Positions 19,260 to 33,410 of a stretch of 64,000 nt of DNA are shown here, in pieces. How positions within the stretch are numbered: the first letter of the stretch is position 1; each line of letters opens with the position of its first letter. The notes beneath the pieces are model-generated. The model saw nothing but the letters and a program-made list of their open reading frames with translations, searched no databases and was not told the DNA's origin. The DNA is from Nannocystis pusilla (lineage in GTDB: Bacteria; Myxococcota_A; Polyangia; Nannocystales; Nannocystaceae): the NCBI RefSeq assembly GCF_049060185.1, contig NZ_JBMEQO010000002.1; one strand, written 5' to 3'. Position numbers and translations under genes: made by a program.

Positions 19260-20301
19260 GCGCGTCGATGAGGACGCAGCCTCGCCTCGCCATTCGCGGC
19301 GATCACTGCGGGCGAAATCGGCGCTCACCGTCCTCGGCGCGTCGAGCTCGGCGGTGATCGTCGCCATGTGCCATCCGGCCGTGAGGCGGCCGAAGTAGCT
19401 CGGCATCTCTTCGAGGTCGTATGGAGCCGTCGTGCAGAATGCGGCATGACCTCCATCCTGCCGTCGAGCGTCAGCCAGCCGGGAGTCAGCGCGTCGAGCC
19501 GCAGCGTCGTCGTGCGTTGCATCCGGCTCGCCGAGATCCGCAGCGTGGAGGGATCGGAGCACTCGACCACGATCTCCTCGACGTACGCGGCGCCGTCCCA
19601 CGCCATCGTCGGCTCCGGGCAGCCGAACACCGACGGGTAGGCGTCGTACGCGGTGTCGAGGTACAGCGCCTCGAGCTCGTCGAAGCTCAGCCGTACACCC
19701 GCTCGAACTGGCCGCGGAGCTGGGCCTCGGAGTCGTCGGGCTCCGACATTCGGTACAGCCGGGTCAGCGGCTCGGCGCCGAACTCCTCATACAGGAAGCG
19801 CACGAAGTGACCGGCCGTCGCGTAGGAATACGCGTCGTCGACGCCCTGGGTCTCGAGCGGATCGAAGTCGAGCCAGTCCGACGGCATCATCGAGCCCGGC
19901 GCGAGCATCGGCGCGCTGAAGGCGACCGCCAGCCCTTCCGCCAGGAACGGCTTGGCCTGGCCCATCGAGGCCGCCACGGCGTGCACGAGCTCGTGTTCGA
20001 ACAACGACCAGGGCCCGTAGATGGTAGTCCCGTCGGCGCAGGCCGAAGCGCTGTCGGGACAGAACCCCGAGATGTCCTCGACCCAGTTGTAGCGGATCTT
20101 GCCCCTGGCCTCGATCCCGAGGAGCTCCTCGATCTCTGCCAGGCGCGCCTCCATGAACGCCACGTTGCCGCCGCACAGCTCACCCTCGAATTCCGGCGCG
20201 ATCTCGAACCGATCGGTGACGAAGGCGACCTCCGGCGGCTGCCGGCAGGCTGCCACGCCGAGCATCGTCACCACGCACGCCGCCGCGCTTCTCCGTGTCA
20301 T
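19260..20301 (-). CDS. lipoprotein with HExxH motif (putative zinc metallopeptidase); apparent frameshifts ~19687 and ~19430; 3' end uncertain
   Basis: MTRRSAAACVVTMLGVAAC lipobox; LFEHELVHAVAASMGQ; coding continues in shifted frames (SFDELEALYLDTAYDAYPSVFGCPEPT...). Confidence 0.4.
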
Positions 20302-20504
20302 CGTCGACGATCGTACCACCCGGCCCCGGCCGCGCCAGCCGACGCGCGTCGAGCGTCGTCTTCCCCAGATCTGCGCTGCGCTGCACGGACAAGCCCTTGC
20401 GTGTGGACGGTCTTTGCGTCGCTGCTGATCGACGAGAGACTCGCCGCGGCGCGGCCGAGTCGGTCGCGCCCGTTGCTGACCTGAAGCCCGCGGACCCGAG
20501 CCCG

Positions 20505-21440
20505 CTACGACCGCCGCACCCCTTCGCGCCGCTTCGCCGGGCCGACGCGCTTCGCGGTCGCGCGCATCAGCTCGGCCATGAATTCGAGGAACACGCGCAC
20601 CTTCGGGAGCTGCGCCTTCTCCTTTGCGAAGAGGGCGGCGACCGGCACCTCTTGCTGGAGCTCGGGTCGCAGGACCGCCTCGAACGTGCCGCGGGCGAGG
20701 TCCTCGCGCACCACGTGCTCGAAGACTTGCACGATGCCCTGGCCCGCGCGCGCCGCTTCGAGGATCGCCCCGATGCCGTTCGAGTAGAACCGCCCCGTCG
20801 GCACGAGCGCGACATCGCCGTCTTCGTGCCGGAGCTTCCACGGGAGGGGCATCGAGCCGACGAGGAAGCCCAGAGTGTCATGCCCTCGGAGGTCCTCGAC
20901 GGAGGCCGGCCGACCGCGGCGCGCGAAGTAATCCGGCGTACCGACGATCACCAGCGGCATCGTCCCCAGGTGCTTGTGCATGAGCTCGCTCTCGCGCAGC
21001 TTCGCCATTCGCAACACCACGTCGATCCCCTCGGCGATGGGATCGACCAGATGATCGCGGAGGCTGAGATCGACGGAGAGCTCGGGGTACGCCGCGAGGA
21101 AGCGCCCGATCGCCGGGCCGAGCACGTAACTCCCGAACATCGAAGGCGCGTCGACGCGGAGCCTCCCGCGGGGGCGCTGCGGGTGCTGGCGACGGCCCTG
21201 TCGGCCTCCTCGAGCTCGCGGAGGATGCGAGTACAGCGCTCGTAGTAGACGGCCCCGTCCGCGGTGAGCCCGACGCTGCGGGTCGTCCGCTCCAGCAGTC
21301 GAACGCCGAGGCGCCCCTCGAGCCGCGCGATCGCACGGCTGACGCCGGACGCGGTGAGGCCCATCGCCCGGGCCGCGAGCGTGAAGCTCCGCTTCTCGAC
21401 CACGCGGACGAACACGCCGATCTCGCTGAGCGGATCCATC
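20505..21440 (-). CDS. LysR-family transcriptional regulator; one apparent frameshift ~21160
   Basis: N-terminal HTH MDPLSEIGVFVRVVEKRSFTLAARAMGLTASGVSRAIARLEGRLGVRLLERTTRSV; LysR substrate-binding domain in second frame. Confidence 0.8.
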   Translation of the reverse strand, partial: DGSAQRDRRVRPRGREAELHARGPGDGPHRVRRQPCDRAARGAPRRSTAGADDPQRRAHRGRGRLLRALYSHPPRARGGRQGRRQHPQRPRGRLRVDAPSMFGSYVLGPAIGRFLAAYPELSVDLSLRDHLVDPIAEGIDVVLRMAKLRESELMHKHLGTMPLVIVGTPDYFARRGRPASVEDLRGHDTLGFLVGSMPLPWKLRHEDGDVALVPTGRFYSNGIGAILEAARAGQGIVQVFEHVVREDLARGTFEAVLRPELQQEVPVAALFAKEKAQLPKVRVFLEFMAELMRATAKRVGPAKRREGVRRS

Positions 21441-21577
21441 GCGCGAGTCTCCGCGATTGTTGACCGGCAAGCAACAGAGTCGTGCGCCCATCGGCCTTGG
21501 TCGTCTCGTCGCAGCGCCCTAGAACTCGACGCATGAACGACAAGGTCCCTGGAAACGACTCCGCCCATCCGCATCGA

Positions 21578-22302
21578 ATGACCACCCGCGTCGCGCTCGT
21601 CACCGGTGCGAACAAGGGCATCGGCCTCGAGATCGCCCGCCAGCTCGCCCAAGCCGGCGTCTTCGTCATCCTCGGCGCGCGCGACCGCGACCGGGCGAGC
21701 GCAGCCGTCGCCGATCTGGCGCGCCAGGGATTGGCAGCACAGGCGGTCCGGATCGACCTCGACGACGAGGCGAGCATCGCCACCGCTGCCGCATCGATCA
21801 CCGCCGAGCACGGTCGGCTCGACATCCTCGTCAACAACGCCGGCATCGTCGACGCCGAGGACGGCCCGCCCGGCGCCGCATCCCTCGCGGCCGTCCGCAA
21901 GATCATGAACACGAACTTCGTCGGCACCCTGGCGGTGACGCAGGCGATGCTCCCGCTGCTGCGAAAGTCGCCCGCCGCGCGAATCGTCAATCTGTCCAGC
22001 TCCTCGGTTCGCTCACCCTCAACGGAGATCCGACGTCGCCCTATTATTCGGCGCGATTGATCGGCTACAACGCCTCCAAGGCGGGCGCTCAACATGCTCA
22101 CCGTCCAGCTCGGCGAAGAGCTGCGCGATACGCCGATCGTCGTCACCTCGGTGAGCCCGGGATACGTCAAGACCGACTTGACCGGGCACAATGGTTTCCT
22201 GACCCCGAGCAAGGCGCGAGGTTGCCGGTCGAGCACGCGCTGCGCGGCGCCGACGCCGTCTCCGGCCGGTTCGTGGAAGCGAGCGGCGAGACTCCCTGGT
22301 GA
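21578..22302 (+). CDS. SDR-family (carbonyl reductase-like) oxidoreductase, divergent from the LysR gene; about 3 apparent frameshifts
   Basis: TGANKGIGLEIARQL Rossmann motif, NNAG, catalytic YNASKAG found in a second frame, C-terminal SPGYVKTDL in a third. Confidence 0.7.
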
Positions 22303-22392
22303 GCGCCGACTTTCGGCCGCGACAGCCGTCGCCACGCCGAGCCGTGCGCGCCCGGGCCTGCGCGCCCCTGTCGCCGCCGCGGTGAAACCGGC

Positions 22393-22416
22393 GACATGTC
22401 TCCCAGGACATGTCCC
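22393..22416. repeat. GACATGTCTCCCA-GGACATGTCC palindromic repeat pair
   Basis: Perfect 10-bp palindrome GGACATGTCC preceded by a half copy, in the intergenic region after the SDR gene. Confidence 0.6.
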
Positions 22417-22596
22417 GATTCCGCGCCGCGAGGCCGCGCGCGCGGCCTCGCGAGTGGTCGCGCGGCCCACACCGCCGCGACGTCACCCGTGCAGCCGCAT
22501 GCACCACGTGGATCGACTCGTCGCCGCGTCGGGGCCGCCGGCCTCTGCGATCCCCGACGCTCGCCCGTCGGCGATCCGCTCGCGTACGATGCCGCC

Positions 22597-24265
22597 ATGA
22601 GACTTTGTGTATGGGCGAGCAGGAGTGCATTCGCGGCAGCGATCGCCGCGGCGGGGTGTGGGGACAGCGGCGTCGCGGCCAGCGAGACGGACGCGACCGG
22701 CACGGAGACGCAGGCGACGACCAGCGGTGACAGCACGAGCGAACCGGCGCCGACGACCGGCGCGCCGACCACGAGCGGCACCTCGACGGTCGGCACCGAC
22801 AGCGCGACCGCGGCGACCGACAGCGACACCACGACCACCACGACCACCACGACCACCACCGACGGCGACACCACGACCACCACGACGACCGACAGCGACG
22901 CGACCACCACCGATTCCACCAGCACCGGCCCCGCCCCTTCTGCGGCGACGGCGAGGTCGACGACGGCGAGGCCTGCGACGACGGTCCGGGCAACGCCGAC
23001 GACGCCAACTGCACCCTCGCCTGCGCCGAGGCCGTGTGCGGCGACGGCCTCGTCCACGCGGGCGTCGAGGCCTGCGACGACGCCAACGACGTCGACGACG
23101 ACGCCTGCAGCAACACCTGTGCCCTCGCCACCTGCGGCGACGGAGCGGTCCAGAACGGCGAGGCCTGCGACGACGCCAACACCGACGACACTGACGCCTG
23201 CCTCTCCACCTGCCTCGCCGCCAGCTGCGGCGACGGCCACGTCCAGGCCGGCGTCGAGCCATGCGACGACGGCAACCCCGACGACGCCGACGCCTGCCTC
23301 TCACCTGCCAGGCCGCCACCTGCGGCGACGGCCACGTCCAGGACGGCGTCGAGCAGTGCGACGACGGCAACGCCGACAACAGCGACGCTTGCCTCGCCAC
23401 CTGCCAGACCGCCACTTGCGGCGACGGCGAGGTGCAGGCCGGCGTCGAGGAGTGCGACGACGCCGACGCCGACGACAGCGACGCCTGCCTCGCCGATTGC
23501 AAGGCCGCCACCTGCGGCGACGGCGTCATCCACGTCGGCGTCGAGCAATGCGACGACGGCAACGACATCGACGGCGACGGCTGCACCAGCGCCTGCACCG
23601 TCCCCACGACCTGCGAGGACCTGCAAGCCGCCGTGCCGATGCTCCCGAGCGGCGTCTACGTCGTCGACCCCGACGGCGTCGGCGGTCAGGCCGGTTACCC
23701 CGTCTTCTGCGACATGGTCACCGCCGGCGGCGGCTGGACATTGCTCGAGCGCAGCCCGCTCGGCGCCCAGACCATCGGCAAGGCGCTCTACAACGACCTC
23801 CCCATCAACGCCGCCGACCCTGCCAACGCCCGCCATCGCCTGTCCAAGGCGCAGATGACCGTCCTGCGCGACCTCTCCACCGACATGCGCATCGACTGCC
23901 GCGGCGACGACTACTTGCTGACCGCTGCCGGCAACCTGTTCAACGGTCAAGGTGGACCGAACAGCTGCTTCGATTGGTCGCAGGTGCTCTACAAGGAGGC
24001 CCGCCTCAAGGGCAACTTCGTGCAGAACAAGACCATCTGCACCTGGCACGTCGGCACCTCCGAGGGCTGCGCCGGCGCCTGGCACATCGACGAGGTGGCC
24101 CAGAACCAGTACGGCTGCGGCCTCGTCAACTACCCGTGGAAGGGCGCCGCGGTCGTCAGCCCCTCCGCCGACACCTTCGCCACCGACCCCAACACCCTCG
24201 ACGCGGTCAACCCGATACACGACTGTCACAAGCCCGGCGCCGCCCGCTGGCTGATGGTCCGCTGA
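22597..24265 (+). CDS. lipoprotein with Thr-rich linker, about 7 Myxococcus cysteine-rich repeats (CGDGxV..GExCDDGN..DxC) and a C-terminal fibrinogen-related domain; about 2 apparent frameshifts
   Basis: [25 protein letters not shown] lipobox; repeats [37 protein letters not shown] and so on; FReD hallmark [18 protein letters not shown]. Confidence 0.7.
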
Positions 24266-25118: not shown

Positions 25119-25148
25119 TTGACGCCTCGCGATGACGGAGCGTAACCT
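25119..25148 (+). promoter_or_regulatory. putative promoter of the encapsulin operon (TTGACG-N18-TAACCT) with an AT-rich upstream element; ~100 nt leader; RBS AAGGA 5 nt before ATG
   Basis: Only AT-rich patch (TTTAATTAATCTTCG...TTGACG) in a 1 kb non-coding, GC-rich leader. Confidence 0.35.
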
Positions 25149-25251
25149 CGCGCCCGCGAGCTCGAACCGCGAAGGGGCCGAATTTCGCCGACACGGCCCC
25201 TGTCGGGCAGAATCGGAAACGGCAGCAGAGCTGTCGGTGAAAAGGATAGTC

Positions 25252-26649
25252 ATGTCGATCGCAGGAAAGCCGGGAAATGATCAGCAGACCAGCCTCTCGA
25301 CGGCTGCAGCGCGGCAGCTCGCCACGACGACGAAGTCCCCGCCGCAGATGCAGGGAATCTCGTCCCGCTGGCTGCTCAAATTGTTGCCCTGGGTGCACGT
25401 CAACGGCGTCTTCCGCCTCAATCGTCGCCTGAGCTACGCCGTCGGCGACGGCCGCGTCACCTTCTACAACACTGGCGCCAAGATCCAGGTCGTGCCGCTG
25501 GAGCTGACCGAGCTCCCGCTGTTCCGCGGCTACGAGGACCTCGAGGTGCTCAACGTCCTCGCCGGCCGCTTCGTGCAGAAGGAGTTCAAGGCGGGCGACA
25601 TCCTGACGCAGAAGGGCAACGAGGCCAACGAGATGGTCCTCATCGCCCACGGCAAGGTCAACAAGATCGGCACCGGCAAGTACGGCGACGAGAGCGTCCT
25701 CGAGACCCTGGCCGACGGTGACCATTACTCGTACCAGGCGATCCTCGAGTCCCAGGACTACTGGGACTTCACCGCCAAGGCAGTGACCGCCGGCAGCGTC
25801 CTGACGCTGTCGCAGGCGTCCTTCGAGGAGCTGGTCGCCCAGCACCCGTCGCTGCGCAAGCACGTCGACGAGTTCAAGGCGCGCTCGCAGAAGAAGCAGG
25901 ACAACAGCGGCCAGGCCGCGATCGAGGTGGCCTCCGGCCACTCGGGCGAGCCCGTGCTGCCCGGCACCTTCGTCGACTACGAGACCTCGCCGCGGGAGTT
26001 CGAGCTCAGCGTCGCCCAGACCGTCCTGCAGGTCCACACGCGCGTCGCCGACCTGTTCAACGACCCGATGAATCAGACGCAGGAGCAGCTGCGCCTGACC
26101 GTCGAGGCGCTGAAGGAGCGCCAGGAGCACGAGCTCATCAACAACCACGAGTTCGGCCTGCTGCACAACGCCGACCTCAAGCAGCGGATCCACACCCGCA
26201 GCGGCCCGCCGACGCCGGACGACATGGACAACCTGCTGGCGCTGGTGTGGAAGGAGCCGGCCTTCTTCCTCGCCCACCCGCGGACCATCGCGGCGTTCGG
26301 CCACGAGTGCAACCGCGCGGGCATCTACCCGACGCCGATCGACCTGGGCGGCCATCACGTCCCGTCGTGGCGCGGCGTGCCGATCTTCCCGTGCAACAAG
26401 ATCCCGATCTCCGACACGCGCACCACCTCGATCCTGCTGATGCGCGTCGGCGAGAAGAACCAGGGCGTCATCGGCCTGCACCACAAGGGCATCCCCGACG
26501 AGATCGAGCCGAGCCTGTCGGTGCGCTTCATGGGCATCAACGAGAAGGCGGTCATCTCGTACCTGGTCAGCCTCTACTACTCGGCCGCCGTCCAGATCCC
26601 GGACGCGCTCGGCATCCTCGAGAGCGTCGAGATCGGCCGCGCCGACTGA
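25252..26649 (+). CDS. Family 2B encapsulin shell protein (HK97-fold with inserted cNMP-binding domain), paralogue 1
   Basis: N-terminal disordered segment, CAP-like cNMP-binding domain ([53 protein letters not shown]...), and a C-terminal shell fold. About 465 aa, intact. Proteins of this kind were historically annotated as Crp/Fnr 'cnb' in 2-MIB operons. Confidence 0.75.
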
Positions 26650-26730: not shown

Positions 26731-28133
26731 ATGTCGATTTTCGAGAAGTCCGGCCGTGATGGCGACGGACAGCAGCCGATGAGCCTCGGGACCCGGGCCG
26801 CGCGGCAGCTGGCGACGACCACCAAGACCCCGCCGCAGAACCAGGGGCGCACGCCTCGCTGGCTGCTCCGCTCGCTGCCCTGGGTCGACGTCACCGGTGG
26901 CACGTTCCGCGTCAATCGCCGCATGAACGTCGCGGTCGGGGACGGGCGGATCGAATTACCAACATCGGCGCCAAGGCTCAGGTGATCCCGGCCGAGCTCA
27001 CCGAGCTGCCGCTCCTGCGCGGATTCGCCGACGACGAGGTGCTCTCGCACCTCGCCAGCCGGTTCGTGCAGTCCGAGTTCAAGCCGGGCCAGCTCATCGC
27101 CGAGCGCGGCAAGCCGGCCGACCACGTGTACCTGCTGGTCCACGGCAAGGCCAACAAGCTCGGCCGGGGCCCCTACGGCGAGGAGGCCATGCTCGAGGTG
27201 ATCGCCGACGGCGCCCACTTCGGCGATCAGGCGCTCGTGCAGGACGACGACGCCTGGGACTACAGCGTTAAGGCGGTCACGCCGTGCATCGTCCTCGCGC
27301 TGCCGCAGACCGAGTTCGAGGCGCTGATCGGCCGCTCGGCCGCCCTGCGCGCCCACGTCGAGCGCTACAAGGAGCTGCTGAAGACCCCGCAGGACAAGCA
27401 CGGCCAGGCGGCCATCCGCTTGACCGCGGGCCACCACGGCGAGGTCACCTTGCCGGGCACCTTCGTCGATTACGAGGCCTCGCCGCGCGAGTACGAGTTG
27501 AGCCTCGCGCAGACCATCTTGCAGCTCCACTCGCGGGTGTCCGATCTGTTCAACGATCCGATGGACCAGCTCGAGGAGCAGCTGCGCCTGACGATCGACG
27601 CCCTGCGCGAGCGGCAGGAGCACGAGCTCGTCAACAACCGCGACTTCGGCCTGCTTCACAACGCCGACTACAAGCAGCGGATCAACACCCGCAGCGGCCC
27701 GCCGACGCCCGACGACATGGACGAGCTGCTGTGCCGGCGCCGCAAGACCAAGTTCATCCTGGCCCACCCGCGGACGATCGCCGCCTTCCGCCGCGAGTGC
27801 ACCCGCCGCCGGCTCGATCCGCCGAACGTCGAATACGAGGGGTCCATCGTCGCCGGCTGGCGCGGCGTGCCGATCCTCCCGTGCGACAAGATTCCGATCT
27901 CCGAGACGCAGACCAGCTCGATCCTCGCCATGCGCGTCGGCCAGGAGGCCCAGGGCGTCATCGGCCTGTATCGCAGCGGCCTCCCCGACGAGCGCGAACC
28001 CGGCCTGTCCGTCCGCAGGATGGGCACCAACGAGAAGGCGGTCGCTTCGTTCCTCGTCAGCACGTACTACTCCGCAGCGGTCCTGATCCCGGACGCGCTC
28101 GGGATCCTGGAAAACATCGAGATCGGGCGCTGA
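26731..28133 (+). CDS. Family 2B encapsulin shell protein, paralogue 2 (~60% identical to paralogue 1); single apparent 1-nt indel near 26960
   Basis: Same architecture ([53 protein letters not shown]...); GGAG RBS 5 nt upstream of ATG 26731. Confidence 0.7.
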
Positions 28134-28201
28134 GCGCCACCGCCGAGGCAGGCGCCACCTTGGGGCGCCTCGTCACAGTGCAACGAAAGAGAACAGACGA
28201 T

Positions 28202-28769
28202 CATGAACACGCCCACCACGGCCAATAGCCTCCTGCGCAGCGAATACCAGAAGTCGGTCGCCAATTACTAGAACACCAACCAGAACGACCCGGTCAATCT
28301 GCTGCTCGGCCACGTCGGCGGCTAATACCACCACCACTACGGGATCGGCGCCGTCAATTGGTCGGTGCTGGAGCAGCCCGAGGCCACGCGCGACGACGCC
28401 ATCATCCGCGAGCTGCACCGCCTCGAGCACGCGCAGGCGGAGCACCTGCTCAAGAAGCTCGGCCCGATCAAGCCCGAGAGCCGCCTTCTCGACGCCGGCT
28501 CCGGCCGCGGCGGCACCAGCCTCATGGCCCACGAGCGCTTCAAGTGCCAGGTCAAGGCCGATCGCGGCTGCTCGATCGACGAGGCGACCGAGGTCACCGT
28601 CCAGCTGCACAACGACCTCGTCCGCGACTTCGAGGCCAGCCACCGCGAGCTGCAGGCCGTCCCCAGCGTCGAGCTGCAGCGGTTCCTGCGCGCCCTGCGG
28701 GCGTGGATGGGCGGCGCGTTCGAGTGGCACGACAGCAACCCGCGCTACAAGACCGGCCGCAAGACGTAG
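28202..28769 (+). pseudogene. decayed remnant of geranyl diphosphate 2-C-methyltransferase (2-methylisoborneol pathway): two in-frame stops (TAG 28268, TAA 28322) and C-terminal truncation
   Basis: SEYQKSVANY*NTNQNDPVNLLLGHVGG*YHHHYGIGAV...IIRELHRLEHAQAEHLL...LLDAGSGRGGTSLMAHERF matches the GPPMT N-terminal half (YWNNEARPVNLRLGDVDGLYHHHYGIG...LESAQAEF...DAGCGRGGSMVMAHRRF). The ORF ends at ...WHDSNPRY, about 100 aa short of full length. Confidence 0.6.
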
Positions 28770-28945
28770 GGCCGCCGCGCGTGCGCTGAATCGCCGCGCC
28801 GCGCGAGTGAGGAACAAGGGCGCCGCGCCCGCGCGCGTGACCCCTCGGCCTTCACGCCGCGCGGCCCGTCGATCATGACATTCACGGCTGGGCTCGCTGG
28901 TGGCGCTGCTTGCATGTGCAGCCATCTCGGCCATCTTCAGGCGTG

Positions 28946-31900
28946 ACCGGCGATCCGCTCGGATTCCTCCACCCGGCCGCCCGCGCGTGGTTCGAGGCCT
29001 GCTTCGACGCGCCGACATCGGCGCAGGTCGCGGGCTGGCCGGCGATCGAGGCCGGCGAATCGACGCTGCTCCTGGCGCCCACGGGCTCGGGCAAGACTCT
29101 GGCGGCGTTCCTCGGCGCCATCAACCGCGTCATGTTCGCGCCGGTCCCGCCACCTGCGGAGCGCTGCCGCGTGGTCTACGTCTCGCCGATCAAGGCCCTC
29201 GGGGTCGACGTCGAGCAGAACCTGCGCTCGCCGCTGGCCGGCATCGCCGCCACCGCGGACCGGCTCGGCATGACCGTGCACACCCCGACGGTGGCGATCC
29301 GCAGCGGCGACACCCGCAAAGGCGCGGGCGCACATGCAGCGCCACCCGCCCGACATTCTCATCACCACGCCCGAATCGCTGTACATGCTGCTCACCAGCG
29401 AATCGCGGGCGATGCTGCGATCGGTCGACACCGTGATCGTCGACGAGATCCACAGCCTCGTCGCCAGCAAGCGCGGCAGCCACCTCGCCCTCTCGCTCGA
29501 GCGCCTCGAGTGGCTCCGCGCCGGCGCGCGACCGCTGCAGCGGATCGGCCTGTCCGCGACCCAGCGCCCGCTCACCGAGGTCGCGCGCTTCCTCGGCGGC
29601 TCGCTGGTCGACGGCGACGCGATCGCGCCGCGGCCGGTGACGATCGTCGACGCCGGCCAGGTCAAGCAGCTCGACCTGCGCATCGAGATGCCCGTCGAGG
29701 AGCCGACCGCGAGCATCGAGGACGTCCCGCCGGCCGCCAACGAGGGCCCACCGCGATCTCGGGCCTCCCGCGCTCCAACCTCACCGCCCTGCACCCGCGC
29801 CTCGTCGAGCTGATCCGCGCTCATCGCTCGACCATGCTGTTCGTCAATAGCCGCCGCCTCGCCGAGCGGCTCGCTGCGGCGCTCAACGAGGTCGCGGGCG
29901 AGCCGCTGGCGCTCGCGCACCACGGCTCGATGGCCAAGGACGTGCGCGCCGGGGTCGAGGAGCAGCTCAAGCGCGGCACCTTGCCGGCGATCGTCGCCAC
30001 CTCCTCGCTCGAGCTCGGCATCGACATGGGCGCGGTCGACCTCGTGATCCAGCTCGCCTCGCCGCCGTCGATCGCCGCCGGCATGCAGCGCGTCGGCCGG
30101 GCCAACCACCACGTCGGCGGGCGCTCGCGCGGCGTCATCATCCCCAAGTTCCGCGGCGACCTGCTGCCGTGCGCCGCCGCGGCGCGGGCCATGCTCGCCG
30201 GCGAGGTCGAGTCGTCGCGTTATCCTCGCAACCCGCTCGACATCCTCGCCCAGCAGGTCGTCGCCGCGGTGGCGATGGACGACTGGGCCGCCGAGGCGCT
30301 GTACGACAAGCTGCGCGCCGCCGCCCGTACGCCGAGCTGCCGCGCGACGCCTTCGAGGGCGTGCTCGACATGCTCAGCGGCCGCTACCCGAGCGAGGACT
30401 TCGCCGACCTGCGCCCGCGCGTCAACTACGACCGCGTCACCGGCCAGTTGTCGGCGCGCCACGGCGCGCGTCGGGTGGCGATCGGCAACGCCGGCAGCAT
30501 CCCCGACCGCGGCCTGTTCGGCGTCTTCCTCGCCGGCAGCGGCGAGGGCGGCCGCCGCGTCGGCGAGCTCGACGAGGAGATGGTGTTCGAGTCGCGGATC
30601 GGCGACGTGTTCGTGCTCGGCGCCTCGTCGTGGCGCATCGAAGAGATCACCCACGACCGCGTGCTCGTCTCGCCGGCCCCGGGCGAGCCCGGCAAGCTGC
30701 CGTTCTGGCGCGGCGACGGCCCCGGCCGCCCGCTCGAGTTCGGCCAGGCGATCGGCGCGCTGATCCGCGAGATCGGAGCGCTGTCCGACGCCGACGCCGA
30801 GGCCCGCCTCGTCCAGCAGCACTGCCTCGATCCGGCCGCCGCGCACAGCCTCCTGCAGTACGTGCGCGAGGAGCAGGAGGCCGCCAAGACCTTGCCCACC
30901 GATCGCACGATCGTCGTCGAGCGCTTCCGCGACGAGATCGGCGACTGGCGCGTCTGCATCCTCTCGCCGTTCGGCGCCGCAGTGCACGCCCCGTGGGCCA
31001 TGGCGGTGCGCAGCGCCCTGCTCGAGCGCTACGCCGCCGAGCTCGACGTCGTCTGGTCCGACGACGGCATCGTGTTCCGCCTGCCCGAGGCCGAGCGCGC
31101 GCCCGACCCGACGCAATTCTTCCCGCGCGCCGACGAGCTCGAGGATCGCGTGGTCGCGCGCCTCGCCGAGACCTCGCTGTTCGCCACCCGCTTCCGCGAG
31201 AACGCCGGGCGGGCGCTGCTGCTGGTCAAGCGCCGGCCCGGCCAGCGCACCCCGCTGTGGGCCATGCGGCGCAAGTCGGCCGACCTGCTGGCGGCCGCCT
31301 CGCGCTTCCGCGACTTCCCGGTCGTGCTCGAGACCTACCGCGAGTGCCTGAAGGACGTGTTCGACCTGCCCGGCTGCGTCGACCTGCTGCGCCGCGTCGA
31401 GCAGCGCGCGATCAAGGTCGTCGACGTCGAGACGCGCAGCCCGAGCCCGTTCGCCGCGGCCCTGCTGTTCTCCTACGTCGGCAACTTCATGTACGAGGGC
31501 GACGCCCCGCTGGCCGAGCGGCGCGCCCAGGCCCTGACGATCGACCACGCCCGCCTCAAGGCGCTGCTCGGCGAGGCCGCCCTGCGCGACCTGCTCGACG
31601 CCGACGCGATCGCCGAGCTCGAGGCGACCCTGCAGCGGCGCGCTCGCAAGCTCCACCACCCCGACGAGATCCACGACCTGCTGCTCGCGCTCGGCGATCA
31701 GGACCGCGACGACCTCGTCGCCCGCGCCGGCGTCGGCGAGGACGACATCGATCGCTGGCTGGCCGAGCTCACCCACACCCGCCGGATCGTCAAGGTCAAG
31801 CTCGGCGGTCGCTGGCGCTACATCGCCGCCGAGGACGCCGGCCGCTACCGCGACGCCCTCGGCGTCGTCTCGCCGCCGGGCCTGCCGGCGGTGTTCCTCG

Positions 31901-33410
31901 AGTCCGTGGAAGATCCGCTGGCCGACCTCGTCGCCCGCCACACGCGCACGCACGGCCCGTTCCGCGCCGAGTGGCTGGCCCAGCGCTTCGCCGTCGGCAC
32001 CGCGCTCGTCATCGGCGCCCTGCGTCGGCTCGCCGCCCGCGGCAAGGTCGTCGAGGGCGAGTTCATCCCCGCGGCGCCGGCCTCGAGTGGTGCGACGACG
32101 AGGTCCTGCGCCGGCTCAAGCGCATGTCGCTGGCGCGCCTGCGCGAGGAGGTCGAGCCGGTCGAGCAGGCGGTGCTCGGCCGCTTCTCGCTCGCGTGGCA
32201 GGGCATCGGCGGCGAGCGCGAGGGCCCCGAGGCGGTGCTGCAGGCGATCGAGCAATTGCGCGAGTCGCGATCCCGGCCTCGGTGCTCGAGGGCGAGGTCC
32301 TGCCGGCGCGGGTCGCCAACTATCGCGCCACAGATCTCGACGTCCTGTGCGGCGCCGGCGACGTCGTCTGGCGCGGTGTCCGGCCGCTCGGCCAGGCCGA
32401 CGGCTACGTCGCGCTCTACCTCGCCGACGACGCCGCCTGGCTCACCCCCGACCCCACCCCGGCCGCGGGCGAGCTCGCGGCGCGGGTGCGCGAGGCCTTG
32501 CAGGCCCGCGGCGCCTCGTTCTTCGCCGAGCTCGTCACCCAGGTGCGCGCCCCGGTCGACGAGCTGCTCGAGGCCCTGTGGGACCTCGTGTGGGCCGGCG
32601 AGGTCACCAACGACACCCTCACCTGCCTGCGCAGTCGCCTCGCCGGCGCCGATCGGGGCCCGCGTCCGCAGCTGCGCTTCGGCGTCGACGGCCGCGGCCG
32701 GCGCAGCGGCCCCGGGCAGCGAAGGTCGCTGGTCGCTCGTCACCCCGCGCCCCGTCGACGAGACCGAGCGCCGGGCCGCCCGCGCCCGTCAGTTGCTCGC
32801 GCGCCACGGCGTGCTCACCCGCGAGGCAGTCGCCGCCGAGGATCACGAGGGCGGCTTCGCGGCCGTCTATCCTGTCCTCAAGGCCATGGAGGAGGCCGGC
32901 CGGGTGCGCCGCGGCTACTTCGTCGCCGGCCTCGGCGCGACCCAGTTCGCCCTGCCCGGCGCCGAGGATCGCCTGCGCGACGTCCGGGACATCGACGAGG
33001 ACGCGCCCTTCACCGTCCTGCTCGCCGCCACCGATCCCGCCAACCCCTACGGCGCCGCGCTCCCGTGGCCGGATGTCCCCGAGGCCAGGTTCGAACGGGC
33101 CGCCGGCGCGCGCGTGGTCCTGCGCGACGGCCGGCTCATCGCCTTCCTGAGCCGCGGCGCCCGCACCCTCGTCACCAACCTCCCCGACGCCGAGCCGGAG
33201 CGCGGGCGCGCCACCGCGGCGCTCGCCGAGGCCCTGTCGCTGCTGCCCGAGGTCACCGGCCAGCGCTACGTCCTGCTCGAGCAGATCGACAATCAACCGG
33301 CCCCCGCCTGGCCGCAGGTCGCAGCATTGACCGCCGCCGGCTTCCGCCCCACCCACGACGGCCTGATCCTGCGCCGCGACGAGCCGCGCCTCGGCGCGAG
33401 GAGGCGCTGA
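28946..33410 (+). CDS. lhr: Lhr-family ATP-dependent DNA helicase (large helicase-related, ~1490 aa); about 6 apparent frameshifts
   Basis: N-term ...[44 protein letters not shown], motif [18 protein letters not shown], helicase C domain, long Lhr C-terminal extension; pieces alternate among three frames. Confidence 0.8.

Follow-up and report, generated by a model that had tools for sequence, protein, structure and literature searches.

Deletion and premature stops have probably reduced the biosynthetic genes of an encapsulin-linked 2-methylisoborneol operon in Nannocystis to a fused remnant

Gene content of the locus

The stretch of Nannocystis pusilla DNA analyzed here (64,000 nt, hereafter the window) carries two tandem, paralogous genes for family 2B encapsulin shell proteins, which are directly followed on the same strand by a reading frame made up of pieces of two 2-methylisoborneol (2-MIB) biosynthesis genes, and further downstream by genes for an Lhr-type helicase and an Fpg/Nei glycosylase (Table 1). 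2-MIB is a musty odorant that is made in two steps: GPP C-methyltransferase (GPPMT) methylates GPP to 2-methyl-GPP, and 2-methylisoborneol synthase (MIBS) cyclizes 2-methyl-GPP to 2-MIB.

Table 1 Features of the encapsulin-linked locus, with the numbers of window-specific substitutions (synonymous, non-synonymous, stop) in its coding regions.
Feature	Positions	Strand	Description	Synonymous	Non-synonymous	Stop
Shell gene 1	25252–26649	+	family 2B encapsulin, 465 aa; cNMP-binding-fold insertion and SrpI-like HK97 domain; looks intact	3	0	0
Shell gene 2	26731–28133	+	family 2B encapsulin; frame shifted by the loss of 1 bp after 26956 (TTT to TT)	9	4	0
Remnant frame	28203–28769	+	ATG at 28203 to TAG at 28767–28769; 189 codons, two internal stops			
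GPPMT remnant	28203–28553	+	codons 1–117 of 288; ends just past SAM-binding motif I (LDAGSGRGG)	2	2	2
In-frame TAG	28269–28271	+	codon 23, invariant Trp; TGG>TAG, G>A at 28270; window-specific			
In-frame TAA	28323–28325	+	codon 41, Tyr codon; TAC>TAA, C>A at 28325; window-specific			
Deletion junction	28548–28553	+	6-bp microhomology CAGGTC (Gln-Val), present in both GPPMT and MIBS			
MIBS tail	28554–28769	+	together with the Gln-Val codons, codons 310–382 of 382 and the native TAG stop			
Lhr-type helicase gene	28943–33410	+	flanking, outside the pathway; five window-specific 1–2 bp deletions	31	8	0
Fpg/Nei glycosylase gene			downstream of the remnant	6	3	0
Flanking genes summed				49	15	0

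Both upstream genes possess the family 2B shell domains (Pfam PF19307 and PF00027) and exceed the cutoff of 400 bits for the encap_f2b family (NF041163). Shell gene 1 scored 750 bits against this family and matched the SrpI-like (E = 9e-136, also given as 1e-136) and cNMP_binding (E = 3e-13) families of Pfam. Its start was set at the internal ATG on the basis of the orthologue in strain ILAH1, which is 465 aa long; the longer open reading frame (ORF) that begins at 25132 overstates the gene, and its leader (25132–25251) contains window-specific 1-bp indels at 25150, 25174 and 25199. For shell gene 2, the part after the frameshift alone reached 624 bits (Pfam E = 2e-132); the frameshift itself, seen in the alignment with relatives, is probably an assembly error. 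EshA-type proteins are family 2B encapsulins, and such a protein packages 2-MIB synthase via an N-terminal cargo-loading domain of the enzyme (PMC11550324).

On the minus strand, matches to the Rfam family RF02735 (Sernc350, an antisense sRNA of Saccharopolyspora) were observed at 25290–25778 (133 bits) and 26765–27271 (96 bits), covering the 5′ halves of both encapsulin genes. This family was most likely defined opposite an eshA-type gene, in which case the matches probably stem from coding-sequence conservation and not from a conserved RNA.

A reading frame composed of two genes

The translation of the frame downstream of the shell genes, with its stops swapped for sense residues, was compared against all PDB chains. 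A reading of the letters without database searches (the sequence-only reading) had noticed an alignment with the N-terminus of GPPMT, and this similarity is genuine: residues 12–119 align with the crystallized GPPMT 4f84 (E = 2.9e-32, chain residues 47–153 of 320), the same residues match the GPPMT 3vc1 (E = 5.7e-30), and the frame covers positions 1–110 of the 272 positions of the GPPMT equivalog profile NF041943. Entries 3vc1 and 3vc2 are S. coelicolor GPPMT SCO7701, and 4f84–4f86 are the S. lasaliensis enzyme. The N-terminal 117 codons are orthologous to these proteins and share the motifs YQ..YWN, G.YHHHYGIG, ELHRLE.AQAE and LDAG.GRGG, which in the remnant read YQKSVANY(W), G.YHHHYGIG, ELHRLEHAQAE and LDAGSGRGG and are followed by MAHERF, so that the GPPMT N-terminal region up to SAM-binding motif I is present.

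Further downstream the homology is with the second enzyme of the pathway. Residues 129–180 match the extreme C-terminus of 3v1v (residues 372–424 of 433, E = 2e-5), the S. coelicolor 2-methylisoborneol synthase SCO7700, and the frame covers positions 300–366 of the 366 positions of NF041167, the MIBS profile (family 2 encapsulin cargo terpene cyclase). By tblastn, codons 116–188 of the frame are 98.6% identical to residues 310–382 of the MIBS of N. pusilla Na p29T. The frame is hence a chimera in which codons 1–117 of GPPMT run on, without a change of frame, into the final 73 codons of MIBS. The sequence-only reading had taken it for a methyltransferase that ends about 100 residues early, after WHDSNPRY, but GPPMT homology already stops at codon 117 of 288, and both WHDSNPRY and the final stop are cyclase sequence. 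It had also reported the cyclase as missing, which is right for most of the gene; MIBS is truncated to its last codons rather than wholly absent.

Neither part approaches a complete enzyme. The remnant scored 164 bits against NF041943 and 82 bits against NF041167 (cutoff 400 in both cases), compared with 496 bits over positions 1–272 for the GPPMT and 463 bits for the MIBS of N. pusilla Na p29T, both above the curated cutoffs. Only 41% of the GPPMT gene is retained, with two premature stops in it, and no uninterrupted frame remains that could encode a complete Rossmann fold together with the substrate-binding C-terminal half. Likewise, the metal-binding motifs of the orthologous cyclases are absent from the MIBS part.

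Within 28173–29018, neither the opposite strand nor the remaining frames contain an ORF with a Pfam match, and the ORFs seen there are the usual spurious ones of DNA with 72% GC. Rfam searches at the gathering thresholds gave no match to an RNA family across the remnant, and a promoter and terminator consensus scan found no site inside it, with site counts not above those of shuffled sequences; the nearest terminator-like site lies ~50 bp downstream of the remnant on the minus strand. A repeat search of 27900–29100 gave nothing informative, as the two short direct-repeat pairs and the one imperfect 15-nt inverted pair found there look like chance matches.

Intact and decayed counterparts in related strains

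Species-representative genomes were scanned with shell protein 1, which yielded syntenic loci in three Nannocystis genomes: RBIL2 (L001, 96% amino acid identity), N. punicea FL3 (L002, 92%) and N. pusilla Na p29T (L003, 87%). The window is colinear with all three from ~22.3 to 35 kb, at a DNA identity of 94–96.5% for RBIL2 and N. pusilla and 89–90% for N. punicea. The gene order in the three relatives is shell-shell-GPPMT (288 aa)-MIBS (382 aa)-Lhr. Both biosynthetic genes are uninterrupted in N. pusilla Na p29T and N. punicea, and they are decayed in RBIL2 and in ILAH1, a strain that was found through a protein search (L086) and shares 99.7% identity with RBIL2 across 14.7 kb.

In RBIL2, the GPPMT start codon is lost (ATG>ACG) and no other in-frame start lies close by; the gene also carries a 25-bp frameshifting deletion. 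Both lesions are also found in ILAH1 (L001 13040–15200; L086 6260–8420), and because they are common to two separate assemblies, they are real and not the error of a single assembly. RBIL2 and ILAH1 each have in addition one private 1-bp deletion in MIBS, of which that of RBIL2, located in a CCC run, may be an error. None of these lesions occurs in the part retained in the window, and the three lineages form a near-trichotomy. As judged from these alignments, the N. pusilla group has seen at least two independent inactivations of GPPMT, with Na p29T keeping both genes intact. RBIL2 and ILAH1 have been described as subspecies of N. pusilla, and a 2-MIB cluster has been listed for FL3 and a differently organized one for NCELM but none for RBIL2 and ILAH1 (PMC10435759), a listing with which the independent decay in the latter two agrees. 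Second family 2B loci also exist in related genomes, and no GPPMT was found within the flanks retrieved for them.

A deletion between two short direct repeats

In BLAST comparisons with each of the three relatives, the breakpoints are identical, with the GPPMT match ending mid-gene at 28553 and the MIBS match beginning near the end of that gene at 28548. The overlap is the hexamer CAGGTC. The GPPMT breakpoint reads ...TTCAAGTGC-CAGGTC-GACGGC... (protein ..KCQV|DGVS) and the MIBS breakpoint ...ATGGTCCTG-CAGGTC-AAGGCC... (protein ..MVLQV|KADRG), and the window has the combination ...AAGTGC-CAGGTC-AAGGCC... The DNA missing from the window amounts to 1,540 bp compared with N. pusilla Na p29T, 1,516 bp compared with RBIL2 and 1,548 bp compared with N. 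punicea. In its sequence features the lesion looks like a classical microhomology-bounded deletion that by chance keeps the frame. We also considered an older deletion common to other genomes and rejected it, as RBIL2, N. pusilla and N. punicea all retain the 1.5-kb segment.

The lost segment comprises GPPMT codons 118–288, the intergenic spacer and MIBS codons 1–309. It held most of the GPPMT Rossmann fold after motif I, the Asp-rich motif DDYYADD and the NSE motif NDLYSVAKD of MIBS, and the entire N-terminal region of MIBS. This region contains, in N. pusilla and N. punicea, the sequence ..AGPTGLGT.., whose core GPTGLGT resembles the published GPxGxGTxxL cargo-loading motif.

Stop codons and the substitution pattern

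Three orthologues were aligned in DNA with the GPPMT remnant, and substitutions were called window-specific where the three relatives agree against the window. Both stop codons reported from the letters alone are present. The TAG indeed stands at an invariant Trp position, which is TGG in the relatives. The TAA had been assigned to a Leu position, and here only the stop itself stood, as the codon is Tyr (TAC) in four of four Nannocystis orthologues and Leu only in the Streptomyces GPPMTs.

The 351-bp remnant contains six window-specific substitutions (V10L, N21N, W23stop, D39G, Y41stop and L95L), about twice the background density (2.7 expected, P = 0.055). Although the number is small (n = 6), their distribution differs from that in the flanking genes, both for non-synonymous versus synonymous changes (Fisher P = 0.042) and for stops (P = 0.006; Table 1). 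These figures are small but consistent and indicate, as far as substitution counts can, relaxed selection on the remnant only. The shell genes, in turn, are apparently intact and look as if they were under purifying selection.

The sequence-only reading had furthermore described the surroundings of the stops as locally AT-richer, unusual for this genome. The lower GC content is real (0.60–0.62, and 0.61 over 28134–28340, versus 0.715 for the window), but its use as a signal of decay was rejected: the same stretch has a GC content of 0.62–0.64 in the intact orthologues, and because these show it too, the higher AT content goes back to the ancestor. The intergenic spacer accounts for it, together with an N-terminus in which Asn, Tyr, His, Lys and Gln abound. 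Among the six new changes in the remnant, four are GC>AT, which adds about one percentage point.

Probable history of the locus

Taken from the alignments, the composite frame is very likely the inactivated remnant of both biosynthetic genes of a Nannocystis 2-MIB operon. Pseudogenization of the 2-MIB pathway by lesions unlike the small indels of the window had already been proposed from the letters; our analysis upholds this and adds the 1,540-bp deletion, which had been missed, to the two stops. The ancestral order would have been shell-shell-GPPMT-MIBS, with family 2B encapsulin shells into which MIBS was presumably loaded as cargo via its N-terminal domain. In the lineage of the window, a deletion between the two CAGGTC hexamers would have removed 1,540 bp and joined GPPMT codon 117 to MIBS codon 312, and two single-base changes would have created the stops at GPPMT codons 23 and 41. 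Co-transcription of the remnant with the shell genes probably persists. Translation that begins at the native ATG would yield 22 residues, and a read-through product would be without the cargo-loading domain, the two metal-binding motifs of the cyclase and the greater part of the methyltransferase fold. With no product containing a complete catalytic or cargo-loading domain, the locus in the 64-kb window is predicted to be unable to make 2-methyl-GPP or to supply 2-MIB, and the shells would be left without their cognate cargo.

The lesions in GPPMT and MIBS are in all likelihood biological, unlike the indels elsewhere in the window, a judgment based on the position of both substitutions away from homopolymers and on the 6-bp direct repeats that flank the 1.5-kb loss. 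That both genes are really intact, and that the stops and the gap come from a noisy long-read assembly, is very unlikely. This idea takes its appeal from the fact that related Nannocystis genomes are PacBio-only or Nanopore-only assemblies (PMC10435759) and from the window-specific losses of 1–2 bp by which shell gene 2 and Lhr are disrupted, the latter at 29315, 29746, 30323, 32069 and 32711. The frameshifts in these two genes are most likely long-read consensus errors and the genes would not be pseudogenes: the window-specific substitutions are mostly synonymous in both and, in Lhr, strongly biased to synonymous changes, which argues for functional genes, and the Lhr orthologue of ILAH1 is intact (1,491 aa). 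Five of the six gene-breaking indels, however, are 1–2 bp length changes in short homopolymer runs (CCC, GGG, CC/CCC and TTT), with that at 30323 located beside a CCC run, and the GPPMT lesions are of another kind, as a loss bounded by a 6-bp direct repeat bears the signature of a biological microhomology deletion and not of a consensus error. Moreover, the 64 other window-specific substitutions include no stop, the clustering of three inactivating lesions in a single dispensable locus is what decay would produce, and sister strains decay independently at the same locus, as seen in two separate assemblies. For the window assembly as a whole, the substitution differences look genuine, and most 1–2 bp indels, mainly those in homopolymers, look like errors.

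It is extremely improbable that the chimera, or the 134-codon ORF in its downstream part (28365–28769), is a functional new small protein, made by read-through or from an internal start and with a selected MIBS tail. The fusion is in frame, and the 216 bp of the tail are free of window-specific substitutions, but an in-frame junction is a one-in-three chance, and zero substitutions are not unusual where ~1.6 are expected (chance of none ~0.2). Translation that begins at the native start runs into the two stops close to the 5′ end, and every catalytic and cargo-loading determinant is gone. Two further remnants from metagenome contigs seem to speak for such a protein, one being an independent in-frame chimera of a GPPMT N-terminus and a MIBS C-terminus without stops (P0001) and the other retaining the MIBS tail from almost the same residue as the window (P0003). 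Both were recovered with a query that included the MIBS tail, which biases recovery toward tails by ascertainment, and we draw no function from them; P0003 occurs on four contigs whose DNA does not differ, which makes them uninformative about selection on the retained tails.

The locus among known 2-MIB operons

Encapsulin-linked 2-MIB operons have been described for EshA/Sg Enc of S. griseus (PMC11550324) and for cnbA/cnbB-mtf-mtc of cyanobacteria (PMC3072421, PMC12159092), and production of 2-MIB by Nannocystis exedens is known from Dickschat et al. 2007 (cited in PMC11550324). As in those operons, shell genes with a cNMP-binding-fold insertion directly adjoin the GPPMT and MIBS sequence in the window; unlike them, two tandem shell genes lie upstream, an arrangement common to the Nannocystis relatives, and the cargo and methyltransferase genes of the window appear destroyed, with the shells orphaned. 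All components belong to a described system, and their state is ordinary pseudogenization. Membership by descent in the GPPMT-MIBS/family 2B encapsulin system is certain, whereas functional membership fails, as predicted from the reading frames, for both enzymes.

The remnant should be annotated as a GPPMT/MIBS fusion pseudogene and not as a short methyltransferase or a hypothetical protein. The strain is predicted to be without 2-MIB from the locus in the window, which bears on the tracking of off-flavor sources and on counts of myxobacterial clusters. Strains that are ~4–5% apart in DNA offer an intact, a GPPMT-dead and a doubly deleted version of an encapsulin-linked terpene operon, a natural experiment in which one could ask what family 2B shells do without cargo. 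A broader reading, which we regard as unlikely, is that 2-MIB was lost repeatedly and independently in the N. pusilla group and the shells were kept intact, seemingly under purifying selection; if true, family 2B shells would have a role beyond 2-MIB synthase, for example with other cargo encoded elsewhere or in a cargo-independent function.

Related fragments and the region upstream

The P0001 chimera (L085 375–962, JGI metagenome 3300046791) is an uninterrupted ORF of 195 aa, in which GPPMT residues 1 to ~100 are followed in frame by MIBS from residue 288 to the end. It is 64% identical to the junction ORF of the window and matches the corresponding GPPMT and MIBS segments of N. pusilla at 69–77% identity, and its junction (..VLDA|YSVAKDL..) differs from that of the window. 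The 375 bp upstream of the ORF on this contig contain no encapsulin gene. P0001 may represent either a true deletion allele or an error of metagenome assembly. The P0003 tail (L081 4210–4503, also on L082–L084) is a 97-aa ORF with MIBS sequence only, from residue 311, and adjoins a polyprenyl synthase gene. A GPPMT remnant was sought upstream of it and not found, the ~600 bp there being AT-rich non-coding DNA.

The genes upstream of the shell genes (19.7–24.7 kb) had no Pfam match. The ~3.2 kb of 19286–22526 correspond to only ~0.9 kb in RBIL2 (L001 6444–7378) and ~1.0 kb in N. pusilla, so that this segment is an insertion or replacement upstream of the operon, and the long ORFs located there are likewise without Pfam match. 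The gene preceding the shells, whose ILAH1 orthologue has 555 aa and belongs to no Pfam family, contains internal diverged repeats at 22880–23590, with ~79–81% identity at an offset of ~96–150 bp.
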